Source of the DNA: a plasmid
Reading direction: 5' to 3' (one strand)
Sequence record: NZ_CP090008.1
Length of the DNA: 64,000 nt
The notes beneath the pieces were generated by a model. The model was given only the letters and a program-made list of their open reading frames with translations, was not told the DNA's origin and did no database searches. Positions 27,579 through 49,625 of the stretch are shown piece by piece. The position numbers and the translations under genes were made by a program. The first letter of the stretch is position 1. Every line of letters begins with the position of its first letter.

Positions 27579-28746
27579 ATGGAAGTTATGATTGAAACTT
27601 GTTGTGGAATTGATGTCCACCAAAAGTCTATCGTTTGTTGTATTCTAGATGGTCCACTAGAAAGCAATAAACCTAAAAAGATTCAGAAAAAATTTGGTAC
27701 AACAACTATAGCTCTCCAAAACGCCTTAGATTGGTTATTGGAAAATCACGTCACACATGTCTTTTTTGAAAGCACTGGCCAATATTGGGTACCACTCTTT
27801 AATATATTCTCAGACTCAGAACTCAATTTGATATTAGCTAACCCCCAACATATTAAGAATGTGCCTGGTCGAAAAACAGACATGAAAGATGCCGAATGGA
27901 TTGCACAGCTCGGACGTTGTGGACTTATTGAGCCATCTTACATTCCAAGCCCTGAAGTGATGCAGTTACGTTTACTCACTCGTAGGTTACGTTCTTACAA
28001 ACAACGTCAAACTCAAATAAAGAATGAGATTCATAACCTCTTACAACGTGCTAATATCAAACTAACCAGCTATCTTTCTGATATCTTCTCTAAGACAGGA
28101 CAGTCTCTTTTAACGCTCTTTATCAATGGGGAACTCATTGATTATGACAATGTGACAGCTTGTATTCACAAGCATGTCAAAGCAAGTCCCGAAGAATTAA
28201 TGGAGGCCATGAATGGGAAGTTGTCACTGGAGGATCGATTTCTCTTGGAGCAAAGCCTAGAAGAATATCAATTGTATCAAAAACTCATGAATAAATTAAG
28301 GAGTGAAATAATAGCTTATATCGAAAAGGAGTTTCCCTGAAGAAAATAGATTACTTCAAATGATTCCTGGTGTGAGTGAAACTTGTGCAGCCACAATTTT
28401 AGCTGAGATTGGACCAGATGTGAAGGCTTTTCAATCAGACGCACACTTAGCTTCTTGGGCTGGGCTCTGCCCAGGATCTTATGAAAGTGCTGGCATTAAA
28501 AAATCCTCACATATCACGCAAGGAAATCGATATATCAAGCAGGCTTTGACCATGTCGGGATTGATTGCGGCTCACTCTAAAGACAATGCGTTTTCATCTT
28601 TTTATAGCAAAATTTCCCAAAGAGGAAGTAAGATGAAAGCCGTCATTGCTTGCGCACATAAGCTACTTCGTATCATTTACAAAATTCTCGCAACACACCA
28701 AGAATACGACAAAGAAAAAGTGCTAGGACTGAGGCAACAGTTCTAA
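27579..28746 (+). pseudogene. IS110-family transposase split by a frameshift into DEDD N-terminal and Transposase_20 C-terminal ORFs.
   Basis: ORF 27579..28340 (DEDD-type N-terminus CCGIDVHQKS) and ORF 28360..28746 (IPGVSETCAATILAEIGPD...SWAGLCPGSYESAG) join if the frame shifts by 1 nt near 28330-28338. Confidence 0.6.
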
Positions 28747-29446: not shown

Positions 29447-30108
29447 CCTATATCATTTTGTTTGTAGTTATGTTTGCTATCAAGTGTGTCACTCTTACTT
29501 TTGTAAAGAATAAAGAGTCTACAGTAGTCAGTACTTTTTTGAGTGGCACGAATCTGATTTTCCTTAATACTATTGTCTGGTTCCTACGATTAACAGCCAT
29601 GACCCAATTTTATCTTTTAGTTGTGGACAATAATCTAACTGTTATCCCTATAATTGTTGGTTTTATTCTTCCCAATATCTTGTTCTGGTTTAAGAGTATT
29701 AAAGCTTCCTTATCGGATTTGCTTGTACGTTGGTTAAAATCAGTCATTGGTCATAAGTATAGAACATGCCCATTTTGTCATGAATCACATTTATTCTTTC
29801 GATACACCGAGGACCGCACGGCTGCTTATTACTATCTCTTGACAGAGGATGATAGTCTTGTGGCCATTGGAGATTTTGATAATAGTGATCACCCTGCACG
29901 ATTCTTTTTAAGTAACGACGAATCGCATTTTGATGAACTGGCTGATACTATGCTACCTTATATGTTGCCTGGCATGGAAGAGGCGGTCTATGTAGGTGGG
30001 CGACAACAGCGATTGGCTAGAGCATTGTATTGTGTCGATTGCCAGGAACGAGTCAGTGAAGATAGTGGGGTACAATTTGGCGAAGTGTTATTGAACAAGG
30101 TAAGCTAG
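29440..30108 (+). CDS. Membrane protein with C-terminal Cys4 zinc-ribbon-like motif.
   Basis: N-terminal TM helices. CPFCHESH...CVDCQERV. Confidence 0.35.
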   Translation: MLAYIILFVVMFAIKCVTLTFVKNKESTVVSTFLSGTNLIFLNTIVWFLRLTAMTQFYLLVVDNNLTVIPIIVGFILPNILFWFKSIKASLSDLLVRWLKSVIGHKYRTCPFCHESHLFFRYTEDRTAAYYYLLTEDDSLVAIGDFDNSDHPARFFLSNDESHFDELADTMLPYMLPGMEEAVYVGGRQQRLARALYCVDCQERVSEDSGVQFGEVLLNKVS

Positions 30109-30118
30109 TTATTTCAAG

Positions 30119-30200
30119 TAGGAAATATAGTTGAAGTTCTCCTGAGACCATTTCACTAACTAGCGCTGCTTTTCTAGCTGTAAGGCTTCGTTACTATCCT
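30119..30200. mobile_element. Short internal fragment of an IS3-family element.
   Basis: About 80% identical to 33190-33255 (the orfA 3-prime region of the IS3 copy at 32.6-33.8 kb). Confidence 0.4.
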
Positions 30201-30228
30201 ATAACATATAGGTAAATCTCTGATCAAG

Positions 30229-30262
30229 CTACAAAAAAGCCAGCACTTTGAGTACTGGCTTT
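30229..30262 (+). terminator. Rho-independent terminator (agccagcactttgagtactggct + TTTTT).
   Basis: Inverted repeat plus a T-run. Confidence 0.55.
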
Positions 30263-30269
30263 TTTGTAC

Positions 30270-30597
30270 AATCTCTTTTAAATTATATTATTTGATTTTA
30301 ATAGAAGTTAATTAATGTCCTAAAAAAAATCTTGTCCAATTCCACATAATTGCTACCTCTTTTATTCTCTTATTTTTTATGGTGTTATTGTATCAAAACT
30401 AAATGTTTTAACCCTTTTTTGTCGTTATCGAACAATAATTTATCAGAATCGGTAAAAATAAAACTTAGATAAGCAAAAAGTGATTAATTTAAGACCTCTT
30501 GTGATAATTGTAAAAATGATGCTGTGGTTGAAATATAATAGTCGTGTCAGTTAGGGAAACTAATAAGTGACCCGAATAGAATGAAAGGAGTAATAAG
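30270..30597 (+). promoter_or_regulatory. Promoter/leader region of the precursor-peptide array (duplicated at 33800-34134).
   Basis: About 330 bp is nearly identical to 33800-34134. A candidate -10 tataat lies at about 30535 preceded by TG. The RBS AAAGGAG lies 8 nt before the TTG start. Confidence 0.45.
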
Positions 30598-30756
30598 TTG
30601 AAAAACGAAAAAAATTTGCTCGAAGAGCTTGAAATTGACATTTTGGAGTTGGACGATGTAGAAGGTATTCCAGCAACAGCTGCATCAAGTGGTAGCGGTG
30701 GTAGTAGTACGTGTGGGTCAACCTCATGTTCATCATGTTCATCAAGTTGTGCTTAA
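30598..30756 (+). CDS. RiPP precursor peptide copy 1 (TTG start; KNEKN variant).
   Basis: (M)KNEKNLLEELEIDILELDDVEGIPATAASSGSGGSSTCGSTSCSSCSSSCA. An acidic helical leader is followed by a Ser/Thr/Cys-rich core. Confidence 0.75.
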   Translation: MKNEKNLLEELEIDILELDDVEGIPATAASSGSGGSSTCGSTSCSSCSSSCA

Positions 30757-30806
30757 GGCATAGTGCAATCATCTCGTTAAAAAAAGAAAGGAACATAAAA
30801 TAAAGA

Positions 30807-30965
30807 ATGAAAGATGAAAAAAATTTGCTCGAAGAGCTTGAAATCGACATTTTGGAGTTGGACGATGTAGAAGGTATTCCAGCAACAGCTGCATCAAGTG
30901 GTAGCGGTGGTAGTAGTACGTGTGGGTCAACCTCATGTTCATCATGTTCATCAAGTTGTGCTTAA
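30807..30965 (+). CDS. RiPP precursor peptide copy 2.
   Basis: MKDEKNLLEELEIDILELDDVEGIPATAASSGSGGSSTCGSTSCSSCSSSCA (52 aa). Confidence 0.8.
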   Translation: MKDEKNLLEELEIDILELDDVEGIPATAASSGSGGSSTCGSTSCSSCSSSCA

Positions 30966-31015
30966 GGCATAGTGCAATCATCTCGTTAAAAAAAGAAAGG
31001 AACATAAAATAAAGA

Positions 31016-31174
31016 ATGAAAGATGAAAAAAATTTGCTCGAAGAGCTTGAAATCGACATTTTGAAGTTGGACGATGTAGAAGGTATTCCAGCAACAGCTG
31101 CATCAAGTGGTAGCGGTGGTAGTAGTACGTGTGGGTCAACCTCATGTTCATCATGTTCATCAAGTTGTGCTTAA
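31016..31174 (+). CDS. RiPP precursor peptide copy 3 (leader E17K variant).
   Basis: Same as copy 2 except ttgaagttg (ILKL) for ttggagttg (ILEL). Confidence 0.8.
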   Translation: MKDEKNLLEELEIDILKLDDVEGIPATAASSGSGGSSTCGSTSCSSCSSSCA

Positions 31175-31224
31175 GGCATAGTGCAATCATCTCGTTAAAA
31201 AAAGAAAGGAACATAAAATAAAGA

Positions 31225-31383
31225 ATGAAAGATGAAAAAAATTTGCTCGAAGAGCTTGAAATCGACATTTTGGAGTTGGACGATGTAGAAGGTATTCCAG
31301 CAACAGCTGCATCAAGTGGTAGCGGTGGTAGTAGTACGTGTGGGTCAACCTCATGTTCATCATGTTCATCAAGTTGTGCTTAA
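31225..31383 (+). CDS. RiPP precursor peptide copy 4.
   Basis: Identical 209-bp unit. Confidence 0.8.
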   Translation: MKDEKNLLEELEIDILELDDVEGIPATAASSGSGGSSTCGSTSCSSCSSSCA

Positions 31384-31433
31384 GGCATAGTGCAATCATC
31401 TCGTTAAAAAAAGAAAGGAACATAAAATAAAGA

Positions 31434-31592
31434 ATGAAAGATGAAAAAAATTTGCTCGAAGAGCTTGAAATCGACATTTTGGAGTTGGACGATGTAGAAG
31501 GTATTCCAGCAACAGCTGCATCAAGTGGTAGCGGTGGTAGTAGTACGTGTGGGTCAACCTCATGTTCATCATGTTCATCAAGTTGTGCTTAA
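31434..31592 (+). CDS. RiPP precursor peptide copy 5.
   Basis: Identical 209-bp unit. Confidence 0.8.
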   Translation: MKDEKNLLEELEIDILELDDVEGIPATAASSGSGGSSTCGSTSCSSCSSSCA

Positions 31593-31642
31593 GGCATAGT
31601 GCAATCATCTCGTTAAAAAAAGAAAGGAACATAAAATAAAGA

Positions 31643-31801
31643 ATGAAAGATGAAAAAAATTTGCTCGAAGAGCTTGAAATCGACATTTTGGAGTTGGACG
31701 ATGTAGAAGGTATTCCAGCAACAGCTGCATCAAGTGGTAGCGGTGGTAGTAGTACGTGTGGGTCAACCTCATGTTCATCATGTTCATCAAGTTGTGCTTA
31801 A
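31643..31801 (+). CDS. RiPP precursor peptide copy 6.
   Basis: Identical 209-bp unit. Confidence 0.8.
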   Translation: MKDEKNLLEELEIDILELDDVEGIPATAASSGSGGSSTCGSTSCSSCSSSCA

Positions 31802-31851
31802 GGCATAGTGCAATCATCTCGTTAAAAAAAGAAAGGAACATAAAATAAAGA

Positions 31852-32010
31852 ATGAAAGATGAAAAAAATTTGCTCGAAGAGCTTGAAATCGACATTTTGG
31901 AGTTGGACGATGTAGAAGGTATTCCAGCAACAGCTGCATCAAGTGGTAGCGGTGGTAGTAGTACGTGTGGGTCAACCTCATGTTCATCATGTTCATCAAG
32001 TTGTGCTTAA
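31852..32010 (+). CDS. RiPP precursor peptide copy 7.
   Basis: Identical 209-bp unit. Confidence 0.8.
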   Translation: MKDEKNLLEELEIDILELDDVEGIPATAASSGSGGSSTCGSTSCSSCSSSCA

Positions 32011-32060
32011 GGCATAGTGCAATCATCTCGTTAAAAAAAGAAAGGAACATAAAATAAAGA

Positions 32061-32219
32061 ATGAAAGATGAAAAAAATTTGCTCGAAGAGCTTGAAATCG
32101 ACATTTTGGAGTTGGACGATGTAGAAGGTATTCCAGCAACAGCTGCATCAAGTGGTAGCGGTGGTAGTAGTACGTGTGGGTCAACCTCATGTTCATCATG
32201 TTCATCAAGTTGTGCTTAA
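32061..32219 (+). CDS. RiPP precursor peptide copy 8.
   Basis: Identical 209-bp unit. Confidence 0.8.
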   Translation: MKDEKNLLEELEIDILELDDVEGIPATAASSGSGGSSTCGSTSCSSCSSSCA

Positions 32220-32269
32220 GGCATAGTGCAATCATCTCGTTAAAAAAAGAAAGGAACATAAAATAAAGA

Positions 32270-32428
32270 ATGAAAGATGAAAAAAATTTGCTCGAAGAGC
32301 TTGAAATCGACATTTTGGAGTTGGACGATGTAGAAGGTATTCCAGCAACAGCTGCATCAAGTGGTAGCGGTGGTAGTAGTACGTGTGGGTCAACCTCATG
32401 TTCATCATGTTCATCAAGTTGTGCTTAA
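32270..32428 (+). CDS. RiPP precursor peptide copy 9.
   Basis: Identical unit. It is followed by terminator-like hairpin ggacttagt...accaagtcc + TTTT at 32498-32540. Confidence 0.8.
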   Translation: MKDEKNLLEELEIDILELDDVEGIPATAASSGSGGSSTCGSTSCSSCSSSCA

Positions 32429-32497
32429 GGCATAGTGCAATCATCTCGTTAAAAAAGAAAGGAACATAAAATAAAAAAGGAAACAAGAGAAATAAGT

Positions 32498-32540
32498 AAA
32501 GGACTTAGTTCTGTATTTTACAGGACCAAGTCCTTTTAGT
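32498..32540 (+). terminator. Terminator after the precursor array.
   Basis: Imperfect 9-bp inverted repeat with a T-run. Confidence 0.45.
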
Positions 32541-32559
32541 TTTACCTTGATTCGTTAAT

Positions 32560-33790
32560 AAGAAAAATGGTCTAGCTTGTTCCAATTTACTTATTCGACT
32601 TAAATCTCTTTTCGGAATCGTTAAACATCTCAGACTTAAAGATGCCGAATAAGGTTTCCATCATACTATTATCTATACTATTTCTCTGTAATATTTTGTT
32701 CTAGCATAACTATCACTTGTAACAAGTTCGATGACGTAGAAAGATTATAGGTAATAATTTCGCTATTAACGTTATCTAAAATTAGCGACAAATAGAGTTT
32801 TTAGCTGTTTACTGGAATGGCAAATTCTGTCACATCTGAGTAGCATTCTTTTCATTGATTTTTGATGTTTCAAATAGGTGATGATTAAGATTCTATGCTT
32901 TCTTGCGAACCTATCTTTGGTAGGAATAATACTTCCGTTTACGACGTATTCTAGCGATTAAGCCAAGAACTTTCATCAAACGTTGGATCTTTTTATGATT
33001 TATCACAAAGCCATGTTTTCCCAATTTAAGAGTCATTCGACGATAACCATAATTTCCTTTATGCTCATAATAAATTGTCTGAATTTCGTCTTTAAACTAT
33101 TTCTCTTTGTCAAGCCCCTCCAGTTGCTTCAACTGATAGTAGTAAGTTGAGCGAGGTAAACGAGCCGTTTCAAGAAGCAAATCTAGTCGAAATCCTCCTG
33201 AAGCCATTTCTCTAATTGTCTCTGCTTTTCTCGCTGTAAGGCTTCGTCCCTGTCTTCTAGCTCTTTTAACTTTTTTAGGTAAGCCACCTCGGTACGTAAG
33301 CGTTCATTCTCCTCTTGGAGTCGCTCTAGTTCTGTCATTTCTTCCCAAGATTTCTTATGTTTACGTCCCATTTTAGGTGCTCCCCCTCTTGTTTTCTCAA
33401 CAATAGTATACCCATTTTTCTTGTATTGTGCTGTCCAATTTGTCAATAGCGAAGGATTCGGTAGAGCATAATCTAAAGATACACTTTTTCGTGAACGACC
33501 TTCAAGTAGGACTTTATCAATCATTTCTTGTTTTAGTTCTGGAGAATAGTAACAATTCTTACCTTTCTTGACAATTTCTACTCCGTAACGATCAATTAAT
33601 TTCACCATGTACTTTAGACCAGAAACATCCACATCAAATTTTTTTGAAAGCTGTTTGAAGCTTTGTCCTTGTTTTCTTAGTTCATAAATCTGAACTTTAT
33701 CGTCATAACTCAATTTCATAATAAAACACCCCAAAAGTTAGATTTTTTCTGTCTAACTTTTGGGGTGCAGTTCATCAGTGTATTAGGAGT
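32560..33790 (-). mobile_element. IS3-family element remnant (orfA intact, orfB region degraded).
   Basis: orfA lies at 33183..33734. The terminal inverted-repeat hairpin caccccaaaagttaga...tctaacttttggggtg lies at 33737-33778. The orfB-homologous segment 32560-33180 has no long ORF. Confidence 0.6.
33183..33734 (-). CDS. IS3-family transposase OrfA (HTH + leucine zipper).
   Basis: [40 protein letters not shown]... has an HTH and a C-terminal coiled coil, typical of IS3 OrfA. Confidence 0.7.
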
Positions 33791-34134
33791 CATTAATTTT
33801 TAACAATTTCTTTTAAGTTATATTATTTGATTTTAATAGAAGTTGATTAATGTCCTAAAAAAAATCTTGTCCAATTCCACATAATTGCTACCTCTTTTTA
33901 TTCTCTTATTTTTTATGGTGTTATTGTATCAAAACTAAATGTTTTAACCCTTTTTTGTCGTTATCGAACAATAATTTATCAGAATCGGTAAAAATAAAAC
34001 TTAGATAAGCAAAAAGTGATTAATTTAAGACCTCTTGTGATAATTGTAAAAATGATGCTGTGGTTGAAGTATAATAATCGTGTCAGTTAGGAGAGCTAAT
34101 AAATGACCCCAGATAGAATGAAAGGAGTAATAAG

Positions 34135-34271
34135 TTGAAGATCGAAAAAATTTACAAGAAGAGTTTGAAATCGACATTTTGGAGTTAGATGATATAGAAG
34201 GAATTCCATTAACAGATGTATCAAGTGGTAATTATTACGTATGGAATAACCTTATGCTCATCAAGTTTTGA
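34135..34271 (+). pseudogene. Divergent 10th precursor-like gene, out of frame by 1 nt in an A-homopolymer.
   Basis: It follows a duplicate of the array promoter. It begins TTGAAGATCGAAAAAA and has one fewer A than the array copies. With the frame restored it reads (M)KIEKNLQEEFEIDILELDDIEGIPLTDVSSGNYYVWNNLMLIKF. The leader is conserved and the C-terminal region is different and Cys-free. Confidence 0.5.
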
Positions 34272-34377
34272 AAAAAATAGGAAGATGGACGTGCGATAGA
34301 TAAACAGAAATATATATAATGTTCTTTAATTTTGAACAATTATATTTGTTTTCATAGTCATAGAGGAATAAGAACAG

Positions 34378-35154
34378 ATGAGAAATTTAAAATATGTCAT
34401 CCAAGAGGACAGTATGCTGCTATCATATTTTGGAAAAAGATGTAGGATTGCTTTACCTAAAAAGCTATCTAAGGATGAAGTTCTACAACTAGTTATTTCA
34501 AATATAAATGAAATTTTTGGATTAAAGCAAGAGTTTTCAAAATCACTCACCATGTTTAAGATTGGGGAACAAATCTTTCGACTTCCCAAGGAAGCCGAAA
34601 CTTCCTTAAAACGCTTTTTCCCAGCTATAAGATTACTTTCTGAGGAAGAAGAGTCTTTACTGAGACAAAATTTGCAGTTTCTAGGAAATTTGAAAGGAAC
34701 GTTCTACCTTAAAACAGATGGAAAGCAAATGATTCATCAATTAGAAGAAGGAATTTCTATTTATCACGTGCTGGACCAAGCAGACACTATATTTAAAACA
34801 CCAACTATTAATCGTCTTCTAGATATTAATATTTTGAAAAATATATATTTTGAGAGTTTAATAGACTCATTTGATATCATCAATCGTCAAGGAACATGTC
34901 ACTTAGAAATTTTTACTAATGAAAAAGAAAAATATAGTTTTGATGATACCAACATGGAGGATCTTGTTTTTAAAGCAGTCAAAAAAATAATGGAGTCTAA
35001 ACTAAGTTATAGATACGTAGGCATAGGGAGAAATAGAGGCGAATGCCTTGAGGATTATTTGATGAAACATGGTGCCTCTAGTACTCCTATATTTTGTCAA
35101 GATAGTTTATCGAAATTCTTGGGTCTTGTACTTGCTAAGAAGGAGAATCTATGA
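34378..35154 (+). CDS. Hypothetical protein, first gene of the RiPP biosynthetic operon.
   Basis: 258 aa. It is translationally coupled (ATGA) to the YcaO gene. Confidence 0.4.
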   Translation: MRNLKYVIQEDSMLLSYFGKRCRIALPKKLSKDEVLQLVISNINEIFGLKQEFSKSLTMFKIGEQIFRLPKEAETSLKRFFPAIRLLSEEEESLLRQNLQFLGNLKGTFYLKTDGKQMIHQLEEGISIYHVLDQADTIFKTPTINRLLDINILKNIYFESLIDSFDIINRQGTCHLEIFTNEKEKYSFDDTNMEDLVFKAVKKIMESKLSYRYVGIGRNRGECLEDYLMKHGASSTPIFCQDSLSKFLGLVLAKKENL

Positions 35155-36881
35155 ATATTCAGCAATACGTAAAAGTAATACTGTCAAAATCTTGTGAAAC
35201 ACAGCCAATAGAGCTAGTCTACCAAGGGATGAGGTTATATTTTGGAGAACTGGATTATTTTTACTCAAACAGAGTAGAAGAAGGGATAATCATTTTCTGG
35301 GATGAAGACAAACTGATTGTAAGTCCCGTATTTCATAAGAAAGAAAAAAATTGTAGCATCTGTTTCTTAGAACATCGGAGGAAATTTAAAATAGATGATT
35401 CTATTGGAAGAGATGGCGACACGATTGAAATAGAGGATAACAATTTATTTGAAGAAAAATTTCTTTACGTAATATCTAACCTGATACAGGTCAAATCGCA
35501 GCCTCCTTTATTTGATTATTTTATAATTGAGGATTGGAAAATTTCAAAGTGTCAATTCTTTCGAATTGCTAATTGTGACACCTGTATTTCTAATAGAGAA
35601 AGTGTAGAAGAGATCTTGGCTACAGGAAATAGTCGTTGCCAGGCATCCTCTTTGAGAGAAAAGTTGGGAGATTATTCTGCTTATATTCAATTGGGTAATT
35701 CTGATACTGGGATTTTCAATAGAGAGTTAACAACTCTACTAGATAATGGTGTAACGGTTGAACTACAATACTCACTTTCTAATAATGAGATTATTTCGGG
35801 AATTGGTATTGATAAAAGCTATAAAAGAGCAAAAGCTAAGGCATTTCTAGAAGCGATGGAACGTTATAGTGGCATTACCTCCAAGGGGCAGAAACGATAT
35901 TGGTTCTCCATAGAAGACTTGAGAGGGAAGTCAATCGATTTCCTAAATCCTAACGATTATTTTCTTGAACTTGAGAAAGAAGAGGTGGCTAGTACGAATA
36001 AATTTTTCTGGTTGCCAGCTTACAATTACCAAAGTAATGACTATGCTTTAATACCTGAAGATTTTATCATTTATAAAACAGAGAGAACTCCTGAAAGTAA
36101 AAAATTAATGAATATGAGTTCAAATGGACATGCAATTGGAAATAGCTATAAAGAAGCGGTTATTTTTTCACTTTTTGAAATGTACGAACGAGATCATTTT
36201 CTTGTTCATTGGTACGAGAAACAGCCACCTCAAGAAATAAATCAAGATAGCATTCTAGATGAAGATATTCACCATTATTTAAGTATGATTAAAAACTTAG
36301 GGTATGAGGTCTCGATTTATCAAATGCTTTCTAGCAAGGTGATAAGCATTTATTGGACCATCGCTAGAGGAAAAAATGGTAGCAAGTTTGCGACTTATTC
36401 AACAGCAGGTGCTCATCTTTTTGGAAAGACGGCAATTATTTCTGCATTAAAAGAGCTATATTTTGCACTTTATATTTATGATGAAGACGTCGAACATATT
36501 AAAGAAAATGGGCGACAAATGCAAGCTCAAGATGTTAAAACTGTGGCAGATCATGCAATTTATTATTCAATTGAGGATAGAAGTATACAGTTTAATTTTT
36601 TGAAAGGTGTAGAGGTTATCGATTTTGAAATAAAAGATGACTACTCTATCGAGTTAGATTCCTACTATTCAGATCTATTGGAGTTTACGAATAAGCTATT
36701 TGGGAATTTTTATATCGTAGATAATACCCCAAAAGGTTTGAAGGAAATTGGGTTATGCGAGGTGAAAGTGTTTGTTCCTGGTATGCAAGATATGAATTTT
36801 GGTTATGCAAATCAGTACATCAATCACCAGCGGATTCATCTGGACGGTAATCAGGAAGTACCAATTCACCCCTTCCCATAA
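35151..36881 (+). CDS. YcaO-domain cyclodehydratase (azoline-forming) with N-terminal Cys-rich/E1-like or RRE-type extension.
   Basis: YcaO signature MSSNGHAIGNSYKEAVIFSLFEMYERDH and the C-terminal proline-rich end ...VPIHPFP. Confidence 0.75.
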   Translation: MNIQQYVKVILSKSCETQPIELVYQGMRLYFGELDYFYSNRVEEGIIIFWDEDKLIVSPVFHKKEKNCSICFLEHRRKFKIDDSIGRDGDTIEIEDNNLFEEKFLYVISNLIQVKSQPPLFDYFIIEDWKISKCQFFRIANCDTCISNRESVEEILATGNSRCQASSLREKLGDYSAYIQLGNSDTGIFNRELTTLLDNGVTVELQYSLSNNEIISGIGIDKSYKRAKAKAFLEAMERYSGITSKGQKRYWFSIEDLRGKSIDFLNPNDYFLELEKEEVASTNKFFWLPAYNYQSNDYALIPEDFIIYKTERTPESKKLMNMSSNGHAIGNSYKEAVIFSLFEMYERDHFLVHWYEKQPPQEINQDSILDEDIHHYLSMIKNLGYEVSIYQMLSSKVISIYWTIARGKNGSKFATYSTAGAHLFGKTAIISALKELYFALYIYDEDVEHIKENGRQMQAQDVKTVADHAIYYSIEDRSIQFNFLKGVEVIDFEIKDDYSIELDSYYSDLLEFTNKLFGNFYIVDNTPKGLKEIGLCEVKVFVPGMQDMNFGYANQYINHQRIHLDGNQEVPIHPFP

Positions 36882-36906
36882 TCTTATAATTAAAAGAGGA
36901 TAAAAA

Positions 36907-37749
36907 ATGAATTTAATTGAAATTAACAATTTAAGAAAAAACTATGGCGTAAAAGAAGTCTTGAAAGGTTTGGATTTGTCCCTAAAGAATGGTCAAGTTT
37001 ATACATTGCTTGGAAAAAACGGTGCAGGGAAAACAACATTTATCAATATTTTACTTAGACTAATCAAGGAAGATTCTGGTAGCGTAGTCTCAAACGTTAG
37101 CGTAAAAAAAGAAGTTGGTGTAGTCTTTCAGGAAGACTATTTTCCAAAAGAGACAACAGTTTCGGATTTGATAAAGCTACAAGCTTCATTTTTCCATAAG
37201 AAGGTTAATGTTGATGAAGAATTAAAAATAATGGGATTAGAGAAAGAGAAGTTTCAAAAGGTAGGAACACTTTCGGGAGGACAAAAACGGAAACTTTCGT
37301 TCCTATTAGCGACCTTACATGATCCTAAACTTTTGATTTTGGATGAACCTACTGCTGGTATGGATTATGATAGTGTAGAAAAGTTTGTTCAACAGATTAA
37401 AAAATTAAAGGCAAAGGGAAAAACAATTCTCTTAATTACACACGATTTGTACCAAATTGAATCTTTTGCAGATTATATTCTGTTGCTAAATGAAGGTGTA
37501 TTCGAAGAGAAAATCTCAGTAAATGATATGTTTATGGAATCGTTGTATGAATTTCCCAAAGAGATGGTTATGAGTGGAGCTGCGAAGGAGCAATTGTTTT
37601 ATAAGAATGATCAAACTTATGTTTTCAGTAGTCCATACGCACAAAAAATAATTGAACAAAATGGTATTAGGAATCCAGAAAACTTTAAGCGTCATAAACA
37701 AGTAGTAGATATTTTCAAACGTATTTCATTTGTAGAAGGAGATAAATAA
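36907..37749 (+). CDS. ABC transporter ATP-binding protein.
   Basis: Walker A LLGKNGAGKTT. Signature LSGGQKRKLSF. Walker B LLILDEPTAGMD. Confidence 0.85.
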   Translation: MNLIEINNLRKNYGVKEVLKGLDLSLKNGQVYTLLGKNGAGKTTFINILLRLIKEDSGSVVSNVSVKKEVGVVFQEDYFPKETTVSDLIKLQASFFHKKVNVDEELKIMGLEKEKFQKVGTLSGGQKRKLSFLLATLHDPKLLILDEPTAGMDYDSVEKFVQQIKKLKAKGKTILLITHDLYQIESFADYILLLNEGVFEEKISVNDMFMESLYEFPKEMVMSGAAKEQLFYKNDQTYVFSSPYAQKIIEQNGIRNPENFKRHKQVVDIFKRISFVEGDK

Positions 37750-38468
37750 TGATTTCAATTGTTCAGCAGATAAAAAATAGTTTACAAAATAAGCGATTTA
37801 TCATTTTTACGATTTTATTCCCAGTGGTATTTTACGTTTTCTTTATAAAGCAACTTAAGTTTGTAAACACAGATGATAGTGGAATGATTGCATTGTTTTC
37901 TGCTATGTTTGGAATCGCAGGAAGTGGCTTGAACACCTTTAGTCAAAAAGTATCGAAAGACAAAGACTACTTCCGTATTATGGATAAAATCTCGCCCTAT
38001 TCTTATGCACATTATATGTTTGATAGTGTATTAGCACAAACGATCTTGAATATTTTAATTTTGTTCTCAGTTACTTTAGCTGGTGTATTGATTGGTAAAT
38101 TAAATGTAACAGGGTCTTACTTGTCAATTTCTAGTCTCCTGCTATACTTTGGCTTTTATTATATTGTTATTGGCTTCCTATTAGGAACAGTATTTAATGA
38201 TGAAACACTTGCTTCTGCCTCAATGCCAATCTTTTTCCTATTCATGATGCTTAATATTACTCCAAATATCATGACAACATTAAAAATGCCAGATATCATT
38301 GTAACGATTCAGAAATTTTTCCCGGGCTATTATTATAATGAAGTTTTATTGCATCAGACTCCAGAAAAGTTCTTACAAGCATGCTTGGTCATTACAATTT
38401 ATGTTTTTATCGCAGGGACTATCACAGTAATTGTAAATAAATTGTTACAAATTAATAGGAGAGACTAA
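37749..38468 (+). CDS. ABC-2 type transporter permease.
   Basis: Six hydrophobic helices. Its start overlaps the stop of the ATPase gene. Confidence 0.6.
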   Translation: MISIVQQIKNSLQNKRFIIFTILFPVVFYVFFIKQLKFVNTDDSGMIALFSAMFGIAGSGLNTFSQKVSKDKDYFRIMDKISPYSYAHYMFDSVLAQTILNILILFSVTLAGVLIGKLNVTGSYLSISSLLLYFGFYYIVIGFLLGTVFNDETLASASMPIFFLFMMLNITPNIMTTLKMPDIIVTIQKFFPGYYYNEVLLHQTPEKFLQACLVITIYVFIAGTITVIVNKLLQINRRD

Positions 38469-39562
38469 TGGTAGAAATGACTTCAGATAGGTTGTTTTCA
38501 CACTATGAACAATTACATAGGCGACCTGAGCCAGGTTTTTCAGAAGAAAAAACTAAGTGTTATATTAAAGACTTCTTAAGTCCATATCCAGAACTAAAAA
38601 AAATTTCGGAAGGTAAGATGGGATTGATTTATCAATACGTAGGGCGAAAGGAAGAAAAACATCATTATGATTTAGCTTTTCGTGCTGAATTAGATGCTGT
38701 AGAAATGGATGAATTCTATGGAACCTACTATCATGGTTGTGGACATGATGCACATACAAGTATCCAACTGGAATTAATCACCTATGTTTGTCGTAACAAA
38801 CCAAAGCTAAATGTACTTTTCATTTTTCAAGCAAGTGAAGAAAAGTATGGTGGTGCAAAAGAAGTTTGTAAGTTTTTGAAAGACAAAAGGATTACTTTAT
38901 CGAGAATATATGCTTTACACGTTACCTCGGATTTGTATCCCAATTATGTATCAATCAATAAGGGAGACATTCTAGCTGCTGGTTTGACTTGCCATTTAAA
39001 ACTTTCATTAAAGAATAGTGGACATGTCAGTAATCATGGGGACAGTGCAGCGAGTTTATTTTCTAAATTAGTTTTACTATCAGAAAGCCTAGATGAACTG
39101 GATTGTCAGTGTAGAATTACTAACTTTTTCACCAATGGCTCTCATAATGTATCTCCTACAGAAATAAAATTTAATATTACGTTTAGAGGAAAAAGTAGTG
39201 ATATTTGCAAGCAGCAACATCAGAAATTTTTAGATCAGTTAAACCTAGAATATCAAAAGGAAGTTATTATGGATTATCCTTTATTACATAATAATACAAT
39301 GCTATATGAATGGGTTGAACAAGTATTATCTCAAAGTAAAGTAGTAAAGACTCTAAAAACTCCATTTTTGTTTTCTTGTGATGATTTTGCCTTCTATGGA
39401 AAAGAGCTAGATGTACCGACATGTTATTTCTTTATTGGTGCATATAGTCAGGGTCATCCGATTCATTCGAATGAATTTATTACACCGAAGGCTAGCTTAT
39501 TAAGAGGTTTGTATGTGATGACATTATTGATAGAAAAGGAGAATGAGCGAATTAATGGTTAA
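38468..39562 (+). CDS. M20-family amidohydrolase/peptidase.
   Basis: Metal-binding motif YHGCGHDAHTS, typical of M20D aminoacylase-like enzymes. Confidence 0.55.
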   Translation: MVEMTSDRLFSHYEQLHRRPEPGFSEEKTKCYIKDFLSPYPELKKISEGKMGLIYQYVGRKEEKHHYDLAFRAELDAVEMDEFYGTYYHGCGHDAHTSIQLELITYVCRNKPKLNVLFIFQASEEKYGGAKEVCKFLKDKRITLSRIYALHVTSDLYPNYVSINKGDILAAGLTCHLKLSLKNSGHVSNHGDSAASLFSKLVLLSESLDELDCQCRITNFFTNGSHNVSPTEIKFNITFRGKSSDICKQQHQKFLDQLNLEYQKEVIMDYPLLHNNTMLYEWVEQVLSQSKVVKTLKTPFLFSCDDFAFYGKELDVPTCYFFIGAYSQGHPIHSNEFITPKASLLRGLYVMTLLIEKENERING

Positions 39563-42074
39563 AAATGTATATTATAGAAAAACAAATTTTTCGAATGGCG
39601 AATTTTCTAAGTTTTTTCAAAAAGAAATATTTGAAAAAATACGAAATAATCAAAAATATCGCCTCAATTTGTTAAAACAAGTGAGTTCTATTCGAGAATC
39701 GGGAATTGAACAATTAAATCAAGTTATTCAGGAATGTCCGGAAGGTAAAGATAAGAAGCAATTGTTAAAGTTCTCGCATGACTTCTACAATAATAGAGGA
39801 GATTTAGGAAAGAAATTTCAAAAAATAGTATTTCTACTTCCACCAGATTTAGCATCAGAATTTGATTCTTATTTTAAAATGAAAGAACAAATTTTGATGA
39901 TTGATAATAGAATTGAAGAACAGGTAGATCAACAATATTTAAATGAGAAACAAATGATGCTACAGGGACTTCGTGATAATCTAGATTTTGTTCAGAACAC
40001 AAAGATGATTGGGCAGACTCTCTATCAAAAGTTAGAAAAGCTACTCAAAACAGATGTTAAAAATCATAATAAGAAGCAACGGCAAATGGATGGTTTTTTG
40101 TACAATTATTATACTCGTATTGCTACAAAGACAAGTCCCTTGGGGTTATTAGGCACAACAAGTGTTTATGGGCAAGAAGAATTTCATTTAGATAGAGAGA
40201 TTTTTATGTCGGTGAACTCTTCAATCATTTTAAAGATATTTGATAGGCTTTATCAAAACCCAAAAAATCAGCCAGTTTTGAACTTCAAACTAAATGAGAC
40301 ACTAATTTTAAAAGAGAATAAGTATTACGTAACGGTTTTCAATGATATCAAAGGAAAAAGTTTATACCGTAATCGTCAGGAATTGGTTACACTCCCTGAA
40401 AGTAAAATCTTAAATGAGATTTTACAGCTTTTCAAAGGAAAAGGGCAGTTATCGGGACGTGACATCTTAGATAAACTCTCTCAAAAAGGGCAAGAAAATC
40501 TTCTTACAAAATTGTTGGAGAATTGTATTTTACTTCCAGCTGATCAATTAACTATTGAAGGTAAGCAAAGTATGTCAGAAGCGTTTCTGCAGAAATTAAA
40601 GGGTATTTCTTCGGTTATGTTTTCAAATGAAATTGAGATTTTCGAAAGAATAGTTGCATTTGAGCAAGAAGAGTTTTCTTGGGAGATATATGATCGATTG
40701 ACGGAAGAAGTTCATAATCTTGTTCTGTATTATGGCATTGAAGGATTTGACAAATCATCGTATGTTTCGATAGATAAGCTTGCTTCTAATACTGAGAATG
40801 ATTTAGAAAAAGAGGTTCAAGTTGTAAAAGAACAACAGAAGTGTTTCAATGATCTATCAAAATTTATTTCTATTTTTGATATTTCAACACGCAGTAAGTA
40901 TTTAGCCTATGAGATGCTTCGAAAAAAATATGGTGGAGAATTCAAGCCTCGAAACGCTCGAGAAATGAGTAAATTTTTGCGAGATCTATCAACTACGCTT
41001 TTTCAAAGAGATGGCTATTGGATGGAATCATTTGGCTATTTAGGAGAAAAGTACCAGCATAAAATTGATAATCAACTCTTGAAGTTGAAGAAGGAAATTC
41101 TTGAGCAATTGCTTGGTCAAGATTCGGGGGATGGATCAGAACTATTGATTTCAACCGAATTGTTGAATAGTTCAACGAAACAATTAGAGAAACTTGTTGG
41201 ACAAAGCCATAAATCTCGTGCTTATTTTTTACAAGTTAGTCCAAGTAATCAAATAGTCTTTAATCATATTTATAAAGGCTATGGAGTCTACCGTAGACGG
41301 TTTAATCATTATCTTCCAACAGATCAAGAAAGTTATAGATTAGATGGAGCTTTAGTAGATATTCCAATGACATTTGGTTTCAATGCAAATATTCGAGAAA
41401 GTACAGATAAGACCTTATCCTTACCATTAGGTGAACGAGCTTTTGCCAGCTCTGAACAATTGAACTGGTTAGATTTAGGTTTTCGACTTTCAAAACAATC
41501 AAAGGAAATCGAAGTGTTCGAAAAGGCAACGGGTGCTATTATTTATCCACACTTCTTAGGAAGTTTAATAACAGTCGCCCTCCCTTCATTAGTTGCGGTT
41601 TTTAATTCAATTACTCTCAATGATTCTATTTATTTTGATTTTGGAGAATTGTTACTCAGACAGAAAATAAAAAATCATTCTCAGGAAAAAGTAGTGGTCC
41701 CAAGACTTTGCTTTGAAAAAGTTGATTTTATATTATCTCGAAAAAAATGGTATCTTGCTTGTGAAAAATTACATACCATTTTACAGGAAGATACGTCAAT
41801 GGGTCAAAAATGGTTAGAAGTTATCGAGTATTTTGAAGAAGAAGAGTTGCCATTATCTTTCTTTGTAAAAGACTTTTTCGAGTCTTATAATCAGGACTCG
41901 GAGTTACTAAAAACAAAACCACTATACATCAATTTTGAATCTTTTTTAAGCTTTAAAGCATTTGTAGGTTTGGTGAAGAAGAAGGATAGAATTTTAATCG
42001 AAGAGGTCTTGCCAGAATGTACTGATACGGAAACAGATATGATTACAGAGTTAATTGTTGAAACAAATGATTGA
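39543..42074 (+). CDS. Large LanB-like dehydratase, glutamylation-domain type (putative).
   Basis: 843 aa. Its size and its position before two SpaB_C-like genes suggest this. I make no motif-level confirmation. Confidence 0.4.
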   Translation: MSELMVKNVYYRKTNFSNGEFSKFFQKEIFEKIRNNQKYRLNLLKQVSSIRESGIEQLNQVIQECPEGKDKKQLLKFSHDFYNNRGDLGKKFQKIVFLLPPDLASEFDSYFKMKEQILMIDNRIEEQVDQQYLNEKQMMLQGLRDNLDFVQNTKMIGQTLYQKLEKLLKTDVKNHNKKQRQMDGFLYNYYTRIATKTSPLGLLGTTSVYGQEEFHLDREIFMSVNSSIILKIFDRLYQNPKNQPVLNFKLNETLILKENKYYVTVFNDIKGKSLYRNRQELVTLPESKILNEILQLFKGKGQLSGRDILDKLSQKGQENLLTKLLENCILLPADQLTIEGKQSMSEAFLQKLKGISSVMFSNEIEIFERIVAFEQEEFSWEIYDRLTEEVHNLVLYYGIEGFDKSSYVSIDKLASNTENDLEKEVQVVKEQQKCFNDLSKFISIFDISTRSKYLAYEMLRKKYGGEFKPRNAREMSKFLRDLSTTLFQRDGYWMESFGYLGEKYQHKIDNQLLKLKKEILEQLLGQDSGDGSELLISTELLNSSTKQLEKLVGQSHKSRAYFLQVSPSNQIVFNHIYKGYGVYRRRFNHYLPTDQESYRLDGALVDIPMTFGFNANIRESTDKTLSLPLGERAFASSEQLNWLDLGFRLSKQSKEIEVFEKATGAIIYPHFLGSLITVALPSLVAVFNSITLNDSIYFDFGELLLRQKIKNHSQEKVVVPRLCFEKVDFILSRKKWYLACEKLHTILQEDTSMGQKWLEVIEYFEEEELPLSFFVKDFFESYNQDSELLKTKPLYINFESFLSFKAFVGLVKKKDRILIEEVLPECTDTETDMITELIVETND

Positions 42075-43168
42075 GAAAAGAGGAGGAGATTATGGTATAT
42101 AAATTATCTGTATTTATCAATGATTTAGCTTTTTCAAACAGTCTAATCATTAAGATTTATAGTTTTTTAAATAATAAAGCAATTAAAGAAATTTGGGTGA
42201 AGAAATCAATTCAGCGTGGCCACCATCTTGAATTGTTTTCTCTCAATAAAGAGTATTTGAAGACAATGGAAGATTTTATTGTTGGAGAACTGTCAAGTTA
42301 TTCCCCAGTTAATGTTCCTGAAATGAAATTAAAGAAGCAAATCATGAGTGTTGCAGCTGCAGAAAACACGGAGGCTGACTTAAATATTCAACCGGATGGG
42401 ACAATTCTGTTTGAAGAAGTTGAAGAACTATATCAAGATAAAGTTAGGTTAAATTCCTATGAGACTGAGTTGGTTGTGGAAAAGAAAAAGATGGAGTTGA
42501 TTCTCTATCTTGAAAGTATAGGATTCTTCAACGAGCCTGAAAATCAGCAAAATATTTTATTGGTTAAACTATTCTTAAATTTAGGGTTACTTTTTAATAA
42601 CAATTTAAAAATGGGTTATCTATCTATGAAGTCAAATATTCTATTCTTTAACTTACAACTGGAGAAGTTGAAGGGTACAATGTCGCCGGAGAAGTATAAA
42701 CGGTATCATCACTTAGTTAATTTTCTAGATGAGACAGAACAGAGTTATATCAATGAGAATATTGAAATCTTTCTGAATGAAAATAAAAGTTCATTCTATA
42801 AGCAATTTGTAGAAGAACTTTATCAATTTTTTAGTGATGAATTTGAAAAAGGAAACCTTTATTATGAAAACCTAAGTGATGCAGAGAGTTTTGTTCAGAA
42901 ATCACGAAAGAATGGTCAGATAACAGATTTTCACAAAAAATTCTTTACGAATCAAGCTTTTCTTTCCCATCATGCTTCGGAACCCTTTGTGATTTATCGT
43001 TATACAGTTGATGTTCTTTATCAAATTATGCCGTTGTTAAACGTTAATCCGCTTCGAAAACAGAAAATTACAAAAATGGTAAGTGATAAGGTTGAGACAG
43101 GCTATGATATGACCTGGGAAGACAGTTATGCTGACATGCAAGAATTATTTAACAAGAAGGTACAATAA
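42071..43168 (+). CDS. SpaB_C-like domain protein (LanB elimination domain or pyridine synthase candidate).
   Basis: The N-terminal pattern YKLSVFINDL...IKEIWVKKSIQRGHHLELFSL parallels the Lant_dehydr_C signature (W...FIRY..GPHLRLR). Confidence 0.45.
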   Translation: MRKEEEIMVYKLSVFINDLAFSNSLIIKIYSFLNNKAIKEIWVKKSIQRGHHLELFSLNKEYLKTMEDFIVGELSSYSPVNVPEMKLKKQIMSVAAAENTEADLNIQPDGTILFEEVEELYQDKVRLNSYETELVVEKKKMELILYLESIGFFNEPENQQNILLVKLFLNLGLLFNNNLKMGYLSMKSNILFFNLQLEKLKGTMSPEKYKRYHHLVNFLDETEQSYINENIEIFLNENKSSFYKQFVEELYQFFSDEFEKGNLYYENLSDAESFVQKSRKNGQITDFHKKFFTNQAFLSHHASEPFVIYRYTVDVLYQIMPLLNVNPLRKQKITKMVSDKVETGYDMTWEDSYADMQELFNKKVQ

Positions 43169-43696
43169 ATGCATATTTTACTTGAAAATGGAGAAAAATA
43201 TATTTTTGATGGAGTCTACTATAGAAAATTAAATTCAAAGACTAGGCACTTATATTTTCATCAGTTAAAACATAACCATTCCATTTGTTTAGTTAAGAGT
43301 CAGCGTGTGAAGTGTCCGTCTCTTACTTTTGAATTGGTGGATGTGGACAATATTGGTGATCTTCCTGTATTGGATAAAAATGATTGTAAGAAAATAGTTG
43401 AATTCTTTGCCAAAAACATGACAAAAACTTTTGATAAAGTGATGGAAGTTAGTCAAACAATGAATCAGCTTGGATCTCCGACTTTTTCAGATGGTATCGA
43501 CACAACAGTAGGAAAATCAATTGTAAAAGTATTAGCTGCACAGTTATTACGCACCTACTTGAGAGAGCAGGGGTGGATAGTACGAGTAGATTTTGAAAAT
43601 TACCCTAGTAGAAAGGGACAGTTTTTAAAAGTAGATCTCCTCGAAGGCAAAGATATTTATTGTGGGGTAGTAAATGAATACGAACTTAATTACTAA
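43169..43696 (+). CDS. Hypothetical protein in the RiPP operon.
   Basis: 175 aa and translationally coupled. No motif. Confidence 0.35.
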   Translation: MHILLENGEKYIFDGVYYRKLNSKTRHLYFHQLKHNHSICLVKSQRVKCPSLTFELVDVDNIGDLPVLDKNDCKKIVEFFAKNMTKTFDKVMEVSQTMNQLGSPTFSDGIDTTVGKSIVKVLAAQLLRTYLREQGWIVRVDFENYPSRKGQFLKVDLLEGKDIYCGVVNEYELNY

Positions 43697-45353: not shown

Positions 45354-45359
45354 TATAAT

Positions 45360-46268
45360 ATGAAAGAAACTGACAAATGGTTGTCCTACCATATCTTTTG
45401 CCATAATCTTCTTCATCATGACCGTATCATTTGTAAGTTAAATAAATGGACCTCTGAGAAACATCTTTACCCTTATTTCTTCATTCGCTACTGGGAAGGG
45501 GGGCCTCATATCCGTTTTAGGATAAAGAGGAAAGATACCATTCGGGATGACTATTACAATACTCTCGTTGACCTCTTAGAATCGGAATTATCTGATGAGA
45601 GTATCATTCTGACAAAAGAAGAGTATTATCAAGGTCATAAGTTAGATGGAGAGAAAATTCCTATTGAGGAATTGCCTTGGTATGAGAATAACACTATTGT
45701 CCCGATTACCTATGTTCGAGAGAATGAGAGGTACGGGGGAAAAGAAGCAATTGAGCATGCGGAATATGTTTTTTACCGCTCTAGTCAATTAGTCTCAACT
45801 ATGTTAGAAGGTTGTATGAACTGCCACATGATGATTCGGATGCTATTTTATGTCCATATTTATGAGAAAGTAAATGCAGCAATTAAAGAGTGTGGTATAA
45901 ACTTTGATTTCCCCCAATTCTATGCCAATTGTTTCTCGTATTGGAATGAACTTTATGACTTGAAAGATGCAGAATATATAAGAGACATTGCTAATGCTAT
46001 CAAACACTCATTTGAGGACAAAGAAGAAAAAATAAATACTGTCTTTTCATTTATTCAGCCACAAATTCAGAACAATTTTATTGACTCTTTAGTAGAGTAT
46101 TTAAAAAATGTTTCTCAATTAAAGGGAAACAAGATGATGCGTTCTGTCCTGTTTTCTCAAATGCATATGTTCGCGAACCGTCTCGGAATTCCGATTGAAT
46201 ATGAATGTGCCATATACAGTTATTATAACCAGAAAAATACAAATTTAACTTGCCAGAAGGGAGCATAA
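45360..46268 (+). CDS. SpaB_C (Lant_dehydr_C) domain protein; thiopeptide-type [4+2] cyclase or eliminase candidate.
   Basis: WLSYHIFCH...LYPYFFIRYWEGGPHIRFRIK matches the FIRY..GPHLRLR signature. Confidence 0.6.
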   Translation: MKETDKWLSYHIFCHNLLHHDRIICKLNKWTSEKHLYPYFFIRYWEGGPHIRFRIKRKDTIRDDYYNTLVDLLESELSDESIILTKEEYYQGHKLDGEKIPIEELPWYENNTIVPITYVRENERYGGKEAIEHAEYVFYRSSQLVSTMLEGCMNCHMMIRMLFYVHIYEKVNAAIKECGINFDFPQFYANCFSYWNELYDLKDAEYIRDIANAIKHSFEDKEEKINTVFSFIQPQIQNNFIDSLVEYLKNVSQLKGNKMMRSVLFSQMHMFANRLGIPIEYECAIYSYYNQKNTNLTCQKGA

Positions 46269-47081: not shown

Positions 47082-47098
47082 AAGCAAGGAGAATTGTT

Positions 47099-48352: not shown

Positions 48353-48727
48353 TTATTCGCTCTTTATTTCTATGAAATCATCGATGTATCCTTTTATTAA
48401 TTCTAGTAGTGTTGTATAGCTGTAATTTGAAGATAAGTCAATAATTCCTAGAAGTTCAAGGTGATTTTCGAAAATATAATTATAGTCAACATCCGACGTT
48501 AGTAGTACGATTTGTGCAGAGTTCTCATTGTTTCGAATAGCTTTCACCATGGTTCTGTAATTGCTTTTTTGAGTAATTATGATAAAATATAGACTAAGAA
48601 ATTCATGAGAGATTTTAATAGTTTTTAATGGGCTATCCATCTTGCATTGAATTTTTTTCTGTTTACAGTAATGTTTGATGGACAGGTATAGTCTTAGCGA
48701 CGTTAATAACTGCCGAAATAATTTCAA
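48353..48727 (-). CDS. Hypothetical protein.
   Basis: 124-aa ORF upstream of and divergent from the two-component system. Confidence 0.3.
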   Translation of the reverse strand: MKLFRQLLTSLRLYLSIKHYCKQKKIQCKMDSPLKTIKISHEFLSLYFIIITQKSNYRTMVKAIRNNENSAQIVLLTSDVDYNYIFENHLELLGIIDLSSNYSYTTLLELIKGYIDDFIEIKSE

Positions 48728-49589: not shown

Positions 49590-49625
49590 CAAAGTATACC
49601 AGAAAAGTAATGGAAAGGTCAGCTT

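Follow-up and report, generated by a model that had tools for sequence, protein, structure and literature searches.

The sequence analyzed here is a stretch of 64,000 nucleotides from a plasmid (sequence record NZ_CP090008.1), hereafter referred to as the window, and the subject of this study is a tandem array of thiopeptide precursor genes that occupies positions 30598-32478 on its plus strand. Tandem Repeats Finder reported 30599-32483 as one array with a period of 209, 9.0 copies, 99% matches, no indels and a score of 3721. Together with the list of open reading frames (ORFs) and a unit-by-unit comparison, this resolves the region into nine 209-bp units, each composed of a 159-nt ORF encoding 52 amino acids and a 50-nt spacer; chance is not a viable origin for such a repeat. 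The nine ORFs, all on the plus strand, lie at 30598-30756 (copy 1), 30807-30965 (copy 2), 31016-31174 (copy 3), 31225-31383 (copy 4), 31434-31592 (copy 5), 31643-31801 (copy 6), 31852-32010 (copy 7), 32061-32219 (copy 8) and 32270-32428 (copy 9).

The units were compared base by base. Units 2, 4, 5, 6, 7 and 8, which carry the canonical precursor gene, show 0 differences over 209 nt. Unit 1, at the edge of the array, is 4 nt off the canonical unit, with a TTG start codon, a two-base GAT to AAC change that gives D3N, and one synonymous change at Ile13. Unit 3 is distinguished by 1 nt, a G to A change at window position 31064 that produces the substitution E17K, and unit 9 has a canonical coding sequence followed by a spacer whose A-run is one A shorter, the repeat ending about 47 nt past the stop codon. 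The total departure from a perfect repeat is therefore five substitutions and one indel in 1.9 kb, and the longest run without a distinguishing base, from 31064 to about 32456, extends over approximately 1.4 kb, which exceeds the reach of short reads. An earlier note, made from the letters of this stretch, had described nine 52-residue precursor copies at 209-bp spacing, a TTG start and N3 in copy 1, and a single leader substitution in copy 3, and all of these are confirmed by the repeat search, the ORF list and the unit comparison. Its statement that the remaining copies are identical in nucleotide sequence holds for six units over their full length and, in copy 9, for the coding sequence, next to the spacer variant. 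It had also assigned each copy its own ribosome-binding site (RBS), which is correct and can be refined: copy 1 has AAAGGAG 7 nt upstream of its TTG, and copies 2-9 have GAAAGGAA at 14 nt upstream of the ATG, an unusually long spacing when set against the 7 nt found in relatives with a 191-bp period.

Several other readings of the repeat were considered. A polyprotein was ruled out, since the period of 209 cannot be divided by 3 and a TAA codon closes every unit. The 96-residue ORFs that run along the minus strand across the unit junctions are low-complexity repeat artefacts without support. A consensus scan for promoters and terminators internal to each unit returned none. All units contain an 8-bp hairpin that presents the stop codon in its loop (30955-30978 in unit 2); this hairpin is not significant by itself (z = -0.6) and is absent from Streptococcus sp. 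UMB0029, and in the units of the related strain DB-B5 Watson-Crick pairs occur where the window has G-U wobbles.

The precursor peptide, MKDEKNLLEELEIDILELDDVEGIPATAASSGSGGSSTCGSTSCSSCSSSCA, scored 43.2 bits against NF033400 (cut-off 30) and 40.6 bits against TIGR03892 (cut-off 25), the two NCBIfam models for thiazolylpeptide-type bacteriocin precursors, and copy 2 served as the canonical example that passes both models. It consists of an acidic leader, MKDEKNLLEELEIDILELDDVEGIPATAASSGSGGS, followed by a C-terminal core rich in Cys, Ser and Thr, STCGSTSCSSCSSSCA, in which two Ser residues are available for [4+2] ring closure; closure between Ser1 and Ser10 would yield a 26-membered ring. The core is predicted to comprise the 16 residues STCGSTSCSSCSSSCA. 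Across species this core is invariant and the residue at position -1 varies (S, H, Y, F or R), and the leader/core boundary therefore probably lies at that point. Residue E17, which is changed in copy 3, is invariant in the family alignment and sits in the otherwise invariant leader motif LEIDILELDD, so that the charge reversal may impair recognition of copy 3 by the enzymes. The E17K allele was also found in 5 other, unrelated metagenome contigs and thus circulates. The public assembly collection lists the exact 52-residue protein in 420 blocks, and many of the contigs sampled from it are human metagenome assemblies. Records of Streptococcus thermophilus (proteins P0006 and P0008) carry truncated or frameshifted precursors in which the leader is intact and the core is lost, which suggests decayed remnants of the cluster in this dairy species.

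The maturation enzymes are encoded on the same strand by an operon at 34378-47845, with its first gene 1.9 kb downstream of the array; its assignments come from Pfam, NCBIfam and AlphaFold2 combined with Foldseek. In order, its genes encode a conserved 258-residue protein, a first YcaO protein (YcaO-1), an ABC ATPase, an ABC permease, an M20 peptidase, a LanB-N-type dehydratase, a 365-residue pyridine synthase, a 175-residue protein, a second YcaO protein of the SagD type (YcaO-2), a LanB-C/thiopep_ocin protein, a SagB dehydrogenase and a 263-residue protein. The two YcaO proteins matched PF02624 with E values of 6e-43 and 8e-66, and the second reached 246 bits against TIGR03604 (cut-off 219); the SagB dehydrogenase reached 92 bits against TIGR03605 (cut-off 78). 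Azole formation is thereby provided with both a YcaO cyclodehydratase and a SagB-type dehydrogenase. The LanB dehydratase is split into a glutamylation part and an elimination part. The 302-residue LanB-C-type protein exceeded both cut-offs (Lant_dehydr_C, 123.8 bits; TIGR03891, 85.9 bits), and the 843-residue LanB-N-type protein, whose DB-B5 orthologue is named 'lantibiotic dehydratase' in RefSeq, scored 26.8 bits against Lant_dehydr_N, just under the 28-bit cut-off.

The enzyme that defines the thiopeptide class is the [4+2] aza-cyclase, or pyridine synthase. For the 365-residue protein (42071-43168, plus strand) the evidence at the level of sequence is weak, with an E value of 8e-6 against NF045556 and a profile match to PbtD in the PDB at E 1.1, and a single-sequence search of the PDB returned no match. 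An AlphaFold2 model was built from a 12-sequence alignment, with a predicted local distance difference test (pLDDT) score of 88.6. When this model was compared with the PDB by Foldseek, the top 12 matches were all PbtD, TbtD or [4+2] aza-cyclase, with E values from 1.3e-8 to 8.8e-6 and template modeling (TM) scores of 0.57-0.76. On the strength of this modeled PbtD/TbtD fold, the class-defining thiopeptide enzyme appears to be in place in the cluster. The assignment of the array to thiopeptide-type precursors in the earlier note is thus upheld by the two precursor models and by the adjacent full set of thiopeptide enzymes, and the product is predicted from these genes to be an uncharacterized thiopeptide. 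The presence of two YcaO proteins (35151-36881 and 43674-45353) next to a very Ser/Thr-rich core hints at the formation of both oxazoles and thiazoles, and the M20 metallopeptidase (38468-39562) hints at trimming of a C-terminal Ala or of the leader. In the literature we found no description of the product or of the array; the single exception is one line in the genome announcement of strain DB-B5, which mentions 'a thiazolyl peptide bacteriocin locus' and makes no comment on the array.

Upstream of the array, a promoter region together with the 5' untranslated region (UTR) of the array spans 30262-30597 on the plus strand (P1). It contains the direct repeats GTGATTAATT-N11-GTGATAATT at 30480-30509, a TATAAT at 30534-30539 with a poor -35 element, and the RBS AAAGGAG at 30584-30590. 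A copy of this region of about 340 bp (P2, 33797-34134, plus strand) directly precedes the enzyme operon and has the same direct repeats (34016-34045), TATAAT (34070-34075) and RBS AAAGGAG. At both promoters the direct repeats have a spacing of 21 bp and the TATAAT lies 24 nt downstream of them. Within the window the repeat pattern occurs at P1 and P2 only, with 0 occurrences expected by chance, and a similar pair of direct repeats is found upstream of the precursor genes of S. hyointestinalis. Comparison of the promoter copies across strains revealed paralog-specific 5' UTR variants that are common to different lineages, and the duplication of the promoter therefore predates the split of these lineages. 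Lineage-specific variants also occur in P1 and P2 alike, from which it follows that gene conversion has acted between the two promoter copies since their duplication.

P2 is followed by a tenth, decayed precursor gene (34135-34271, plus strand). Its leader is 85% identical to that of the array genes at the nucleotide level, a 1-nt deletion after codon 5 leads to a stop at codon 18, and an 8-nt deletion has removed the Cys-rich core. The same frameshift is present in 11 of the 11 other loci that carry this relic, including Illumina assemblies and the DB-B5 lineage. A sequencing error is ruled out by this recurrence, and the relic is therefore an old pseudogene. A hairpin with a U tract resembling an intrinsic terminator lies between the array and the relic, at 32498-32543 on the plus strand (fold of -37.5 kcal/mol, z = -4.0); no other terminator-like site occurs in 30100-34400, the interior of the array included. 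Relatives have a terminator-like hairpin and U tract between the last precursor gene and the enzymes, with z from -1.9 to -3.9 (L027:10345-10456, L038:2196-2295, L040:2224-2320 and L015:517-615). The corresponding site of the window, after the relic gene (34265-34380), folds like shuffled sequence (z = +0.2); here the hairpin has been lost. The duplicated promoter, the tenth decayed copy and the array as a separate transcription unit are all missing from the account given in the earlier note.

The gap of 1.3 kb between the array and P2 contains a transposase remnant (HTH_Tnp_1) on the minus strand at 33183-33734. Two other loci, L004 (10445-11797) and L011 (CP145864.1; 11903-13105), have an intact IS110 element directly behind the array. 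Upstream of the array, an IS110-type transposase is encoded in two ORFs at window positions 27579-28746.

A candidate regulator of P1 and P2 is found downstream of the operon, where Pfam identifies a LytTR-type response regulator (48858-49589) and a GHKL histidine kinase (49626-50939) as a pair at 48858-50939 on the plus strand. LytTR response regulators bind direct repeats with 21-bp spacing. The pair also adjoins the homologous cluster in S. hyointestinalis. Since direct repeats stand at both promoters and a LytTR regulator lies nearby, co-induction of the array and the operon by one signal is a reasonable proposal. A conserved 124-residue ORF on the minus strand (48353-48727) precedes the pair, and S. 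hyointestinalis has a 129-residue ORF in the same place and orientation; no autoinducer gene was identified.

To place the array in its genomic context, we compared the window with other records. Its flanks match the megaplasmid backbone of Streptococcus salivarius at 92-95% identity, and among the plasmids of PLSDB the cluster was found solely on pIKMIN-B501 (NZ_CP054154.1) of strain DB-B5, with 97.5% identity over 13.5 kb. This plasmid, assembled from PacBio and Illumina reads at a coverage of about 1000x, shares with the window the cluster itself, the position of the array, the duplicated promoter and the relic gene; it differs in its seven units, which measure 205-208 bp, include two damaged ones and are 18-27 nt from those of the window. 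RefSeq annotates six 'thiazolylpeptide-type bacteriocin' genes at this locus. The complete chromosome CP145864.1 has 8 units, so that the three resolved records contain 7 (DB-B5), 8 (CP145864.1) and 9 (window) units. Most short-read metagenome and draft assemblies contain a distinct first copy and one or two more (2-3 units), several of those inspected have a scaffold gap of 100 N within the array, and one draft contig stops inside copy 2. This pattern is that of a collapsed repeat, and the warning in the earlier note that the locus is an assembly hazard is well founded.

The evolution of the array was examined by aligning 24 units from the three resolved arrays. Interior units of one array are 0-2 nt apart, and units of the window and CP145864.1 are 1-3 nt apart. 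Between the window and DB-B5 the distance rises to 18-27 nt of 209; about 18 differences from the window units are common to all DB-B5 units, and every DB-B5 unit carries bases specific to that lineage. The mean number of differences per unit is 1.8 within the window, 7.5 within DB-B5 (damaged and edge units included) and 21.3 between the window and DB-B5. The edges of the arrays behave differently from the interior. The first unit, with its TTG start and Asn3 codon, is recognizably the same gene in 3 of the 3 arrays, the first approximately 40 nt of copy 1 lie outside the homogenized zone and are orthologous to copy 1 in other strains, and the window and CP145864.1 have the same 3' variant in their last unit. 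In the interior of the CP145864.1 array, a G/A polymorphism in the order G-A-A-G-A-A-G suggests exchanges of blocks of several units. The greater likeness within arrays than between lineages, the fixation of lineage variants, the polymorphic copy number and the orthologous edge units together indicate that unequal crossing-over and gene conversion have driven the concerted evolution of an array that would be older than the split of the lineages. The homogenization proposed in the earlier note is thereby borne out directly by the comparison of units across strains. Between interior units of the window and DB-B5 the coding sequence has 4 differences, all of them synonymous (0 changes at approximately 122 non-synonymous sites), the 60-nt stretch for the core is the same in both lineages, and the remaining differences fall in the spacer; as far as these sequences can tell, the peptide is under purifying selection.

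Related clusters occur in S. hyointestinalis, in Streptococcus sp. UMB0029, which was the one relative recovered by a scan of species-representative genomes with the precursor alignment, and in metagenomic streptococci. These resemble the window in gene order, in the core STCGSTSCSSCSSSCA and in the adjacent LytTR/kinase pair. They differ in that 1-3 precursor genes directly precede the first enzyme gene, with a hairpin between, a count that could be higher where short contigs end within the array. This in-operon layout looks like the ancestral one. A sister cluster (L015:158-519, also L016-L020) encodes at least two tandem precursor copies whose core is STCAACSCSSCSSSCA, behind the residues ALPFR, and varies at core positions 4-6. 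A paper on Carnobacterium describes a core that is related yet different.

Tandem identical precursor genes are known from other systems, as the earlier note had stated with reference to four copies in the thiocillin cluster; in Bacillus cereus ATCC 14579 these are tclE-H, four identical genes for a 52-residue precursor (PMC5100339). The two loci have in common the tandem identical genes, a 52-residue precursor with a Cys/Ser/Thr-rich C-terminal core, YcaO proteins, a dehydrogenase, a split LanB and a pyridine synthase, and the S. salivarius locus follows the tclE-H arrangement in having nine head-to-tail ORFs with identical cores, each of which has a separate start codon and Shine-Dalgarno sequence, and one set of enzymes. 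In contrast to the thiocillin cluster, it has nine copies (7-9 across strains) instead of four and a different core, STCGSTSCSSCSSSCA; its array lies apart from the enzyme operon and has a separate promoter copy and a separate terminator, and a decayed tenth copy stands in the operon; and it encodes an M20 peptidase besides two YcaO proteins and resides on a streptococcal megaplasmid. Among other peptides that are synthesized by ribosomes and modified post-translationally (RiPPs), the sactipeptide thurincin H has 3 identical precursor copies, thnA1-A3 (PMC8172795), and the class I lanthipeptide blauticin has 4 identical copies, bpcA1-A4, and one divergent copy (PMC10877564). Both resemble the present locus in placing several identical precursor genes beside one set of modifying enzymes, and both differ in RiPP class and in having fewer copies; the passages of these two papers that were consulted do not mention copy-number polymorphism or concerted evolution. 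The pattern of change is comparable to the concerted evolution of ribosomal DNA, with identity greater within arrays than between lineages, edge units that escape and a polymorphic copy number; the process in S. salivarius acts on a 209-bp plasmid cistron for an antibiotic precursor and not on housekeeping RNA genes. The locus is accordingly an extreme case of the known multicopy-precursor arrangement and no new kind of system. It is set apart by its 7-9 copies, by its copy-number polymorphism and concerted evolution, and by its rewired layout, in which the array is detached, the promoter duplicated and the in-operon copy pseudogenized.

We consider it likely that the locus is a genuine multicopy thiopeptide precursor array on an S. 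salivarius megaplasmid, detached from its enzyme operon together with a duplicated promoter, kept homogeneous by recombination and raising the dosage of precursor. In the ancestral design, one promoter would have served the precursor genes and also, past a leaky terminator, the enzymes. In the S. salivarius lineage, a duplication would then have placed a copy of the promoter and of a precursor gene outside the enzyme operon, and the detached copy would have expanded to 7-9 cistrons as a transcription unit of its own. The in-operon copy and its hairpin would have decayed, leaving P2 dedicated to the enzymes. The array would now be transcribed as a single polycistronic unit consisting of P1, nine cistrons and a strong terminator, and with both P1 and P2 under LytTR control, one signal could switch on substrate and enzymes together. 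A ninefold number of cistrons would raise the ratio of precursor to enzyme, and part of the reason that additional copies pay off may lie in the long Shine-Dalgarno spacing at the internal ones. Exchange among the 209-bp units, through gene conversion and unequal crossing-over, would both keep the copies identical and shift their number among strains (7, 8, 9).

A skeptic might hold that the array is a product of mis-assembly, the actual plasmid having a single copy, two copies or some quite different count. Six identical units and about 1.4 kb without a distinguishing base leave room for such an error, and the 2-3 copies, N-gaps and contig ends of the short-read assemblies show that assembly is unreliable at this locus. 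However, two independent complete records, one of them the hybrid assembly at about 1000x, resolve 7 and 8 units, which establishes the multicopy state without reliance on the assembly of the window. The position-specific markers (unit 1, the E17K of unit 3 and the spacer of unit 9) also stand in a consistent order, and a collapse would yield fewer units, not more. We therefore regard an artefact as highly improbable, and it is very unlikely that the locus is not multicopy; a copy number other than nine in the window is a more realistic prospect, although still an unlikely one. A second account takes the low divergence as a sign of youth, with a gene in one or two copies amplified to nine shortly before sampling. 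The identity of six units is what such a burst would leave behind, and close relatives with 8 and 9 copies, whose promoters are 99.7% identical, show that copy number changes quickly. Against this, the lineage whose units are about 9-10% different also has an array, of seven units, with private variants in every one of them; all three arrays begin with an orthologous unit, and the window and CP145864.1 have the 3' end of the last unit in common; and the scattered variant units (E17K, the G/A pattern, the damaged units) fit turnover better than one burst. Very recent amplification, which the earlier note had offered as one of its explanations, is hence the least favored of them, since multicopy arrays with orthologous edge units are present in lineages this far apart, and we give it little credence. 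Repeated contraction and re-expansion is possible and would be indistinguishable from continuous homogenization with the sequences at hand.

A third account accepts the array and its homogenization and denies their benefit: two 209-bp repeats suffice for RecA-mediated unequal exchange, after which the number of units would drift with no advantage attached to a high copy number. The variation in copy number (7, 8, 9), the tolerance of damaged units in DB-B5 and the presumably functional streptococcal clusters with 1-3 copies are all in its favor. It accounts less well for the narrow high range of the resolved arrays, all of which have 7-9 units and none of which is scattered down to 2, although drift could still produce such a range in a sample of three arrays. 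It also leaves aside that the in-operon copy has decayed while the ORFs of the array are intact, with synonymous change only, and that the loss of the hairpin after the in-operon copy fits a deliberate split of substrate and enzymes into separate transcription units. We judge drift alone to be rather unlikely, less so than a recent burst, and selection for precursor dosage, as raised in the earlier note, to be plausible. Several observations nevertheless weigh against the interpretation of the locus as a homogenized array that raises dosage. The scan with a sigma-70 consensus missed the promoter of the array, in keeping with its poor -35 element, and binding of the LytTR regulator to P1 and P2 is predicted from the repeats. 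With an RBS spacing of 14 nt in copies 2-9, the nine cistrons may be translated unequally. In DB-B5 one unit is frameshifted and another has lost 3 nt of the leader, and copy 3 of the window has a charge reversal at an invariant leader residue, all signs that individual copies are dispensable. Homogenization alone can keep the ORFs intact without selection on each copy, and some of the differences in A-run length between units (208 and 209 bp) are possible homopolymer errors of long reads. Taking these points into account, we conclude that the array probably raises the supply of precursor, a benefit that we infer from the arrangement of the genes. A stronger and more tentative proposal, about which we are doubtful, is that the detached array is a selected and rapidly adjustable dosage device, in which two transcription units would run from copies of one quorum-sensing promoter and their output would be tuned by the recombinational number of cistrons; this tuning would perhaps offset weak translation initiation at the internal cistrons.

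Multicopy precursor genes are a known and little-studied way of setting the ratio of precursor to enzyme in peptide antibiotic pathways, and with 7-9 copies the locus would contain more identical RiPP precursor genes in one array than any of the precedents we found (3-4 copies). The related streptococci, with 1-3 in-operon copies, and S. salivarius, with 7-9 detached copies, form a natural series that allows a direct test of whether the number of cistrons limits thiopeptide yield. S. salivarius is used as an oral probiotic, and an uncharacterized antibiotic in a common commensal is, together with its regulation, of practical interest. The locus also illustrates a pitfall of genome mining: short-read assemblies systematically collapse or break at the array, and most public data no longer show the copy number and sometimes fail to connect the precursor with the enzymes.

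Two further observations concern the genomic setting. In CP145864.1, a chromosome of 2.25 Mb, the whole locus is chromosomal (445004-465162), with relaxase-like and thioredoxin-like neighbors, near a gene resembling that for alanyl-tRNA synthetase, which suggests that the segment is integrated or mobile. In the window, GC skew and AT skew switch sign near 12 kb, negative before and positive after, at a change of the coding strand, and this may mark a replication-related switch on the megaplasmid.

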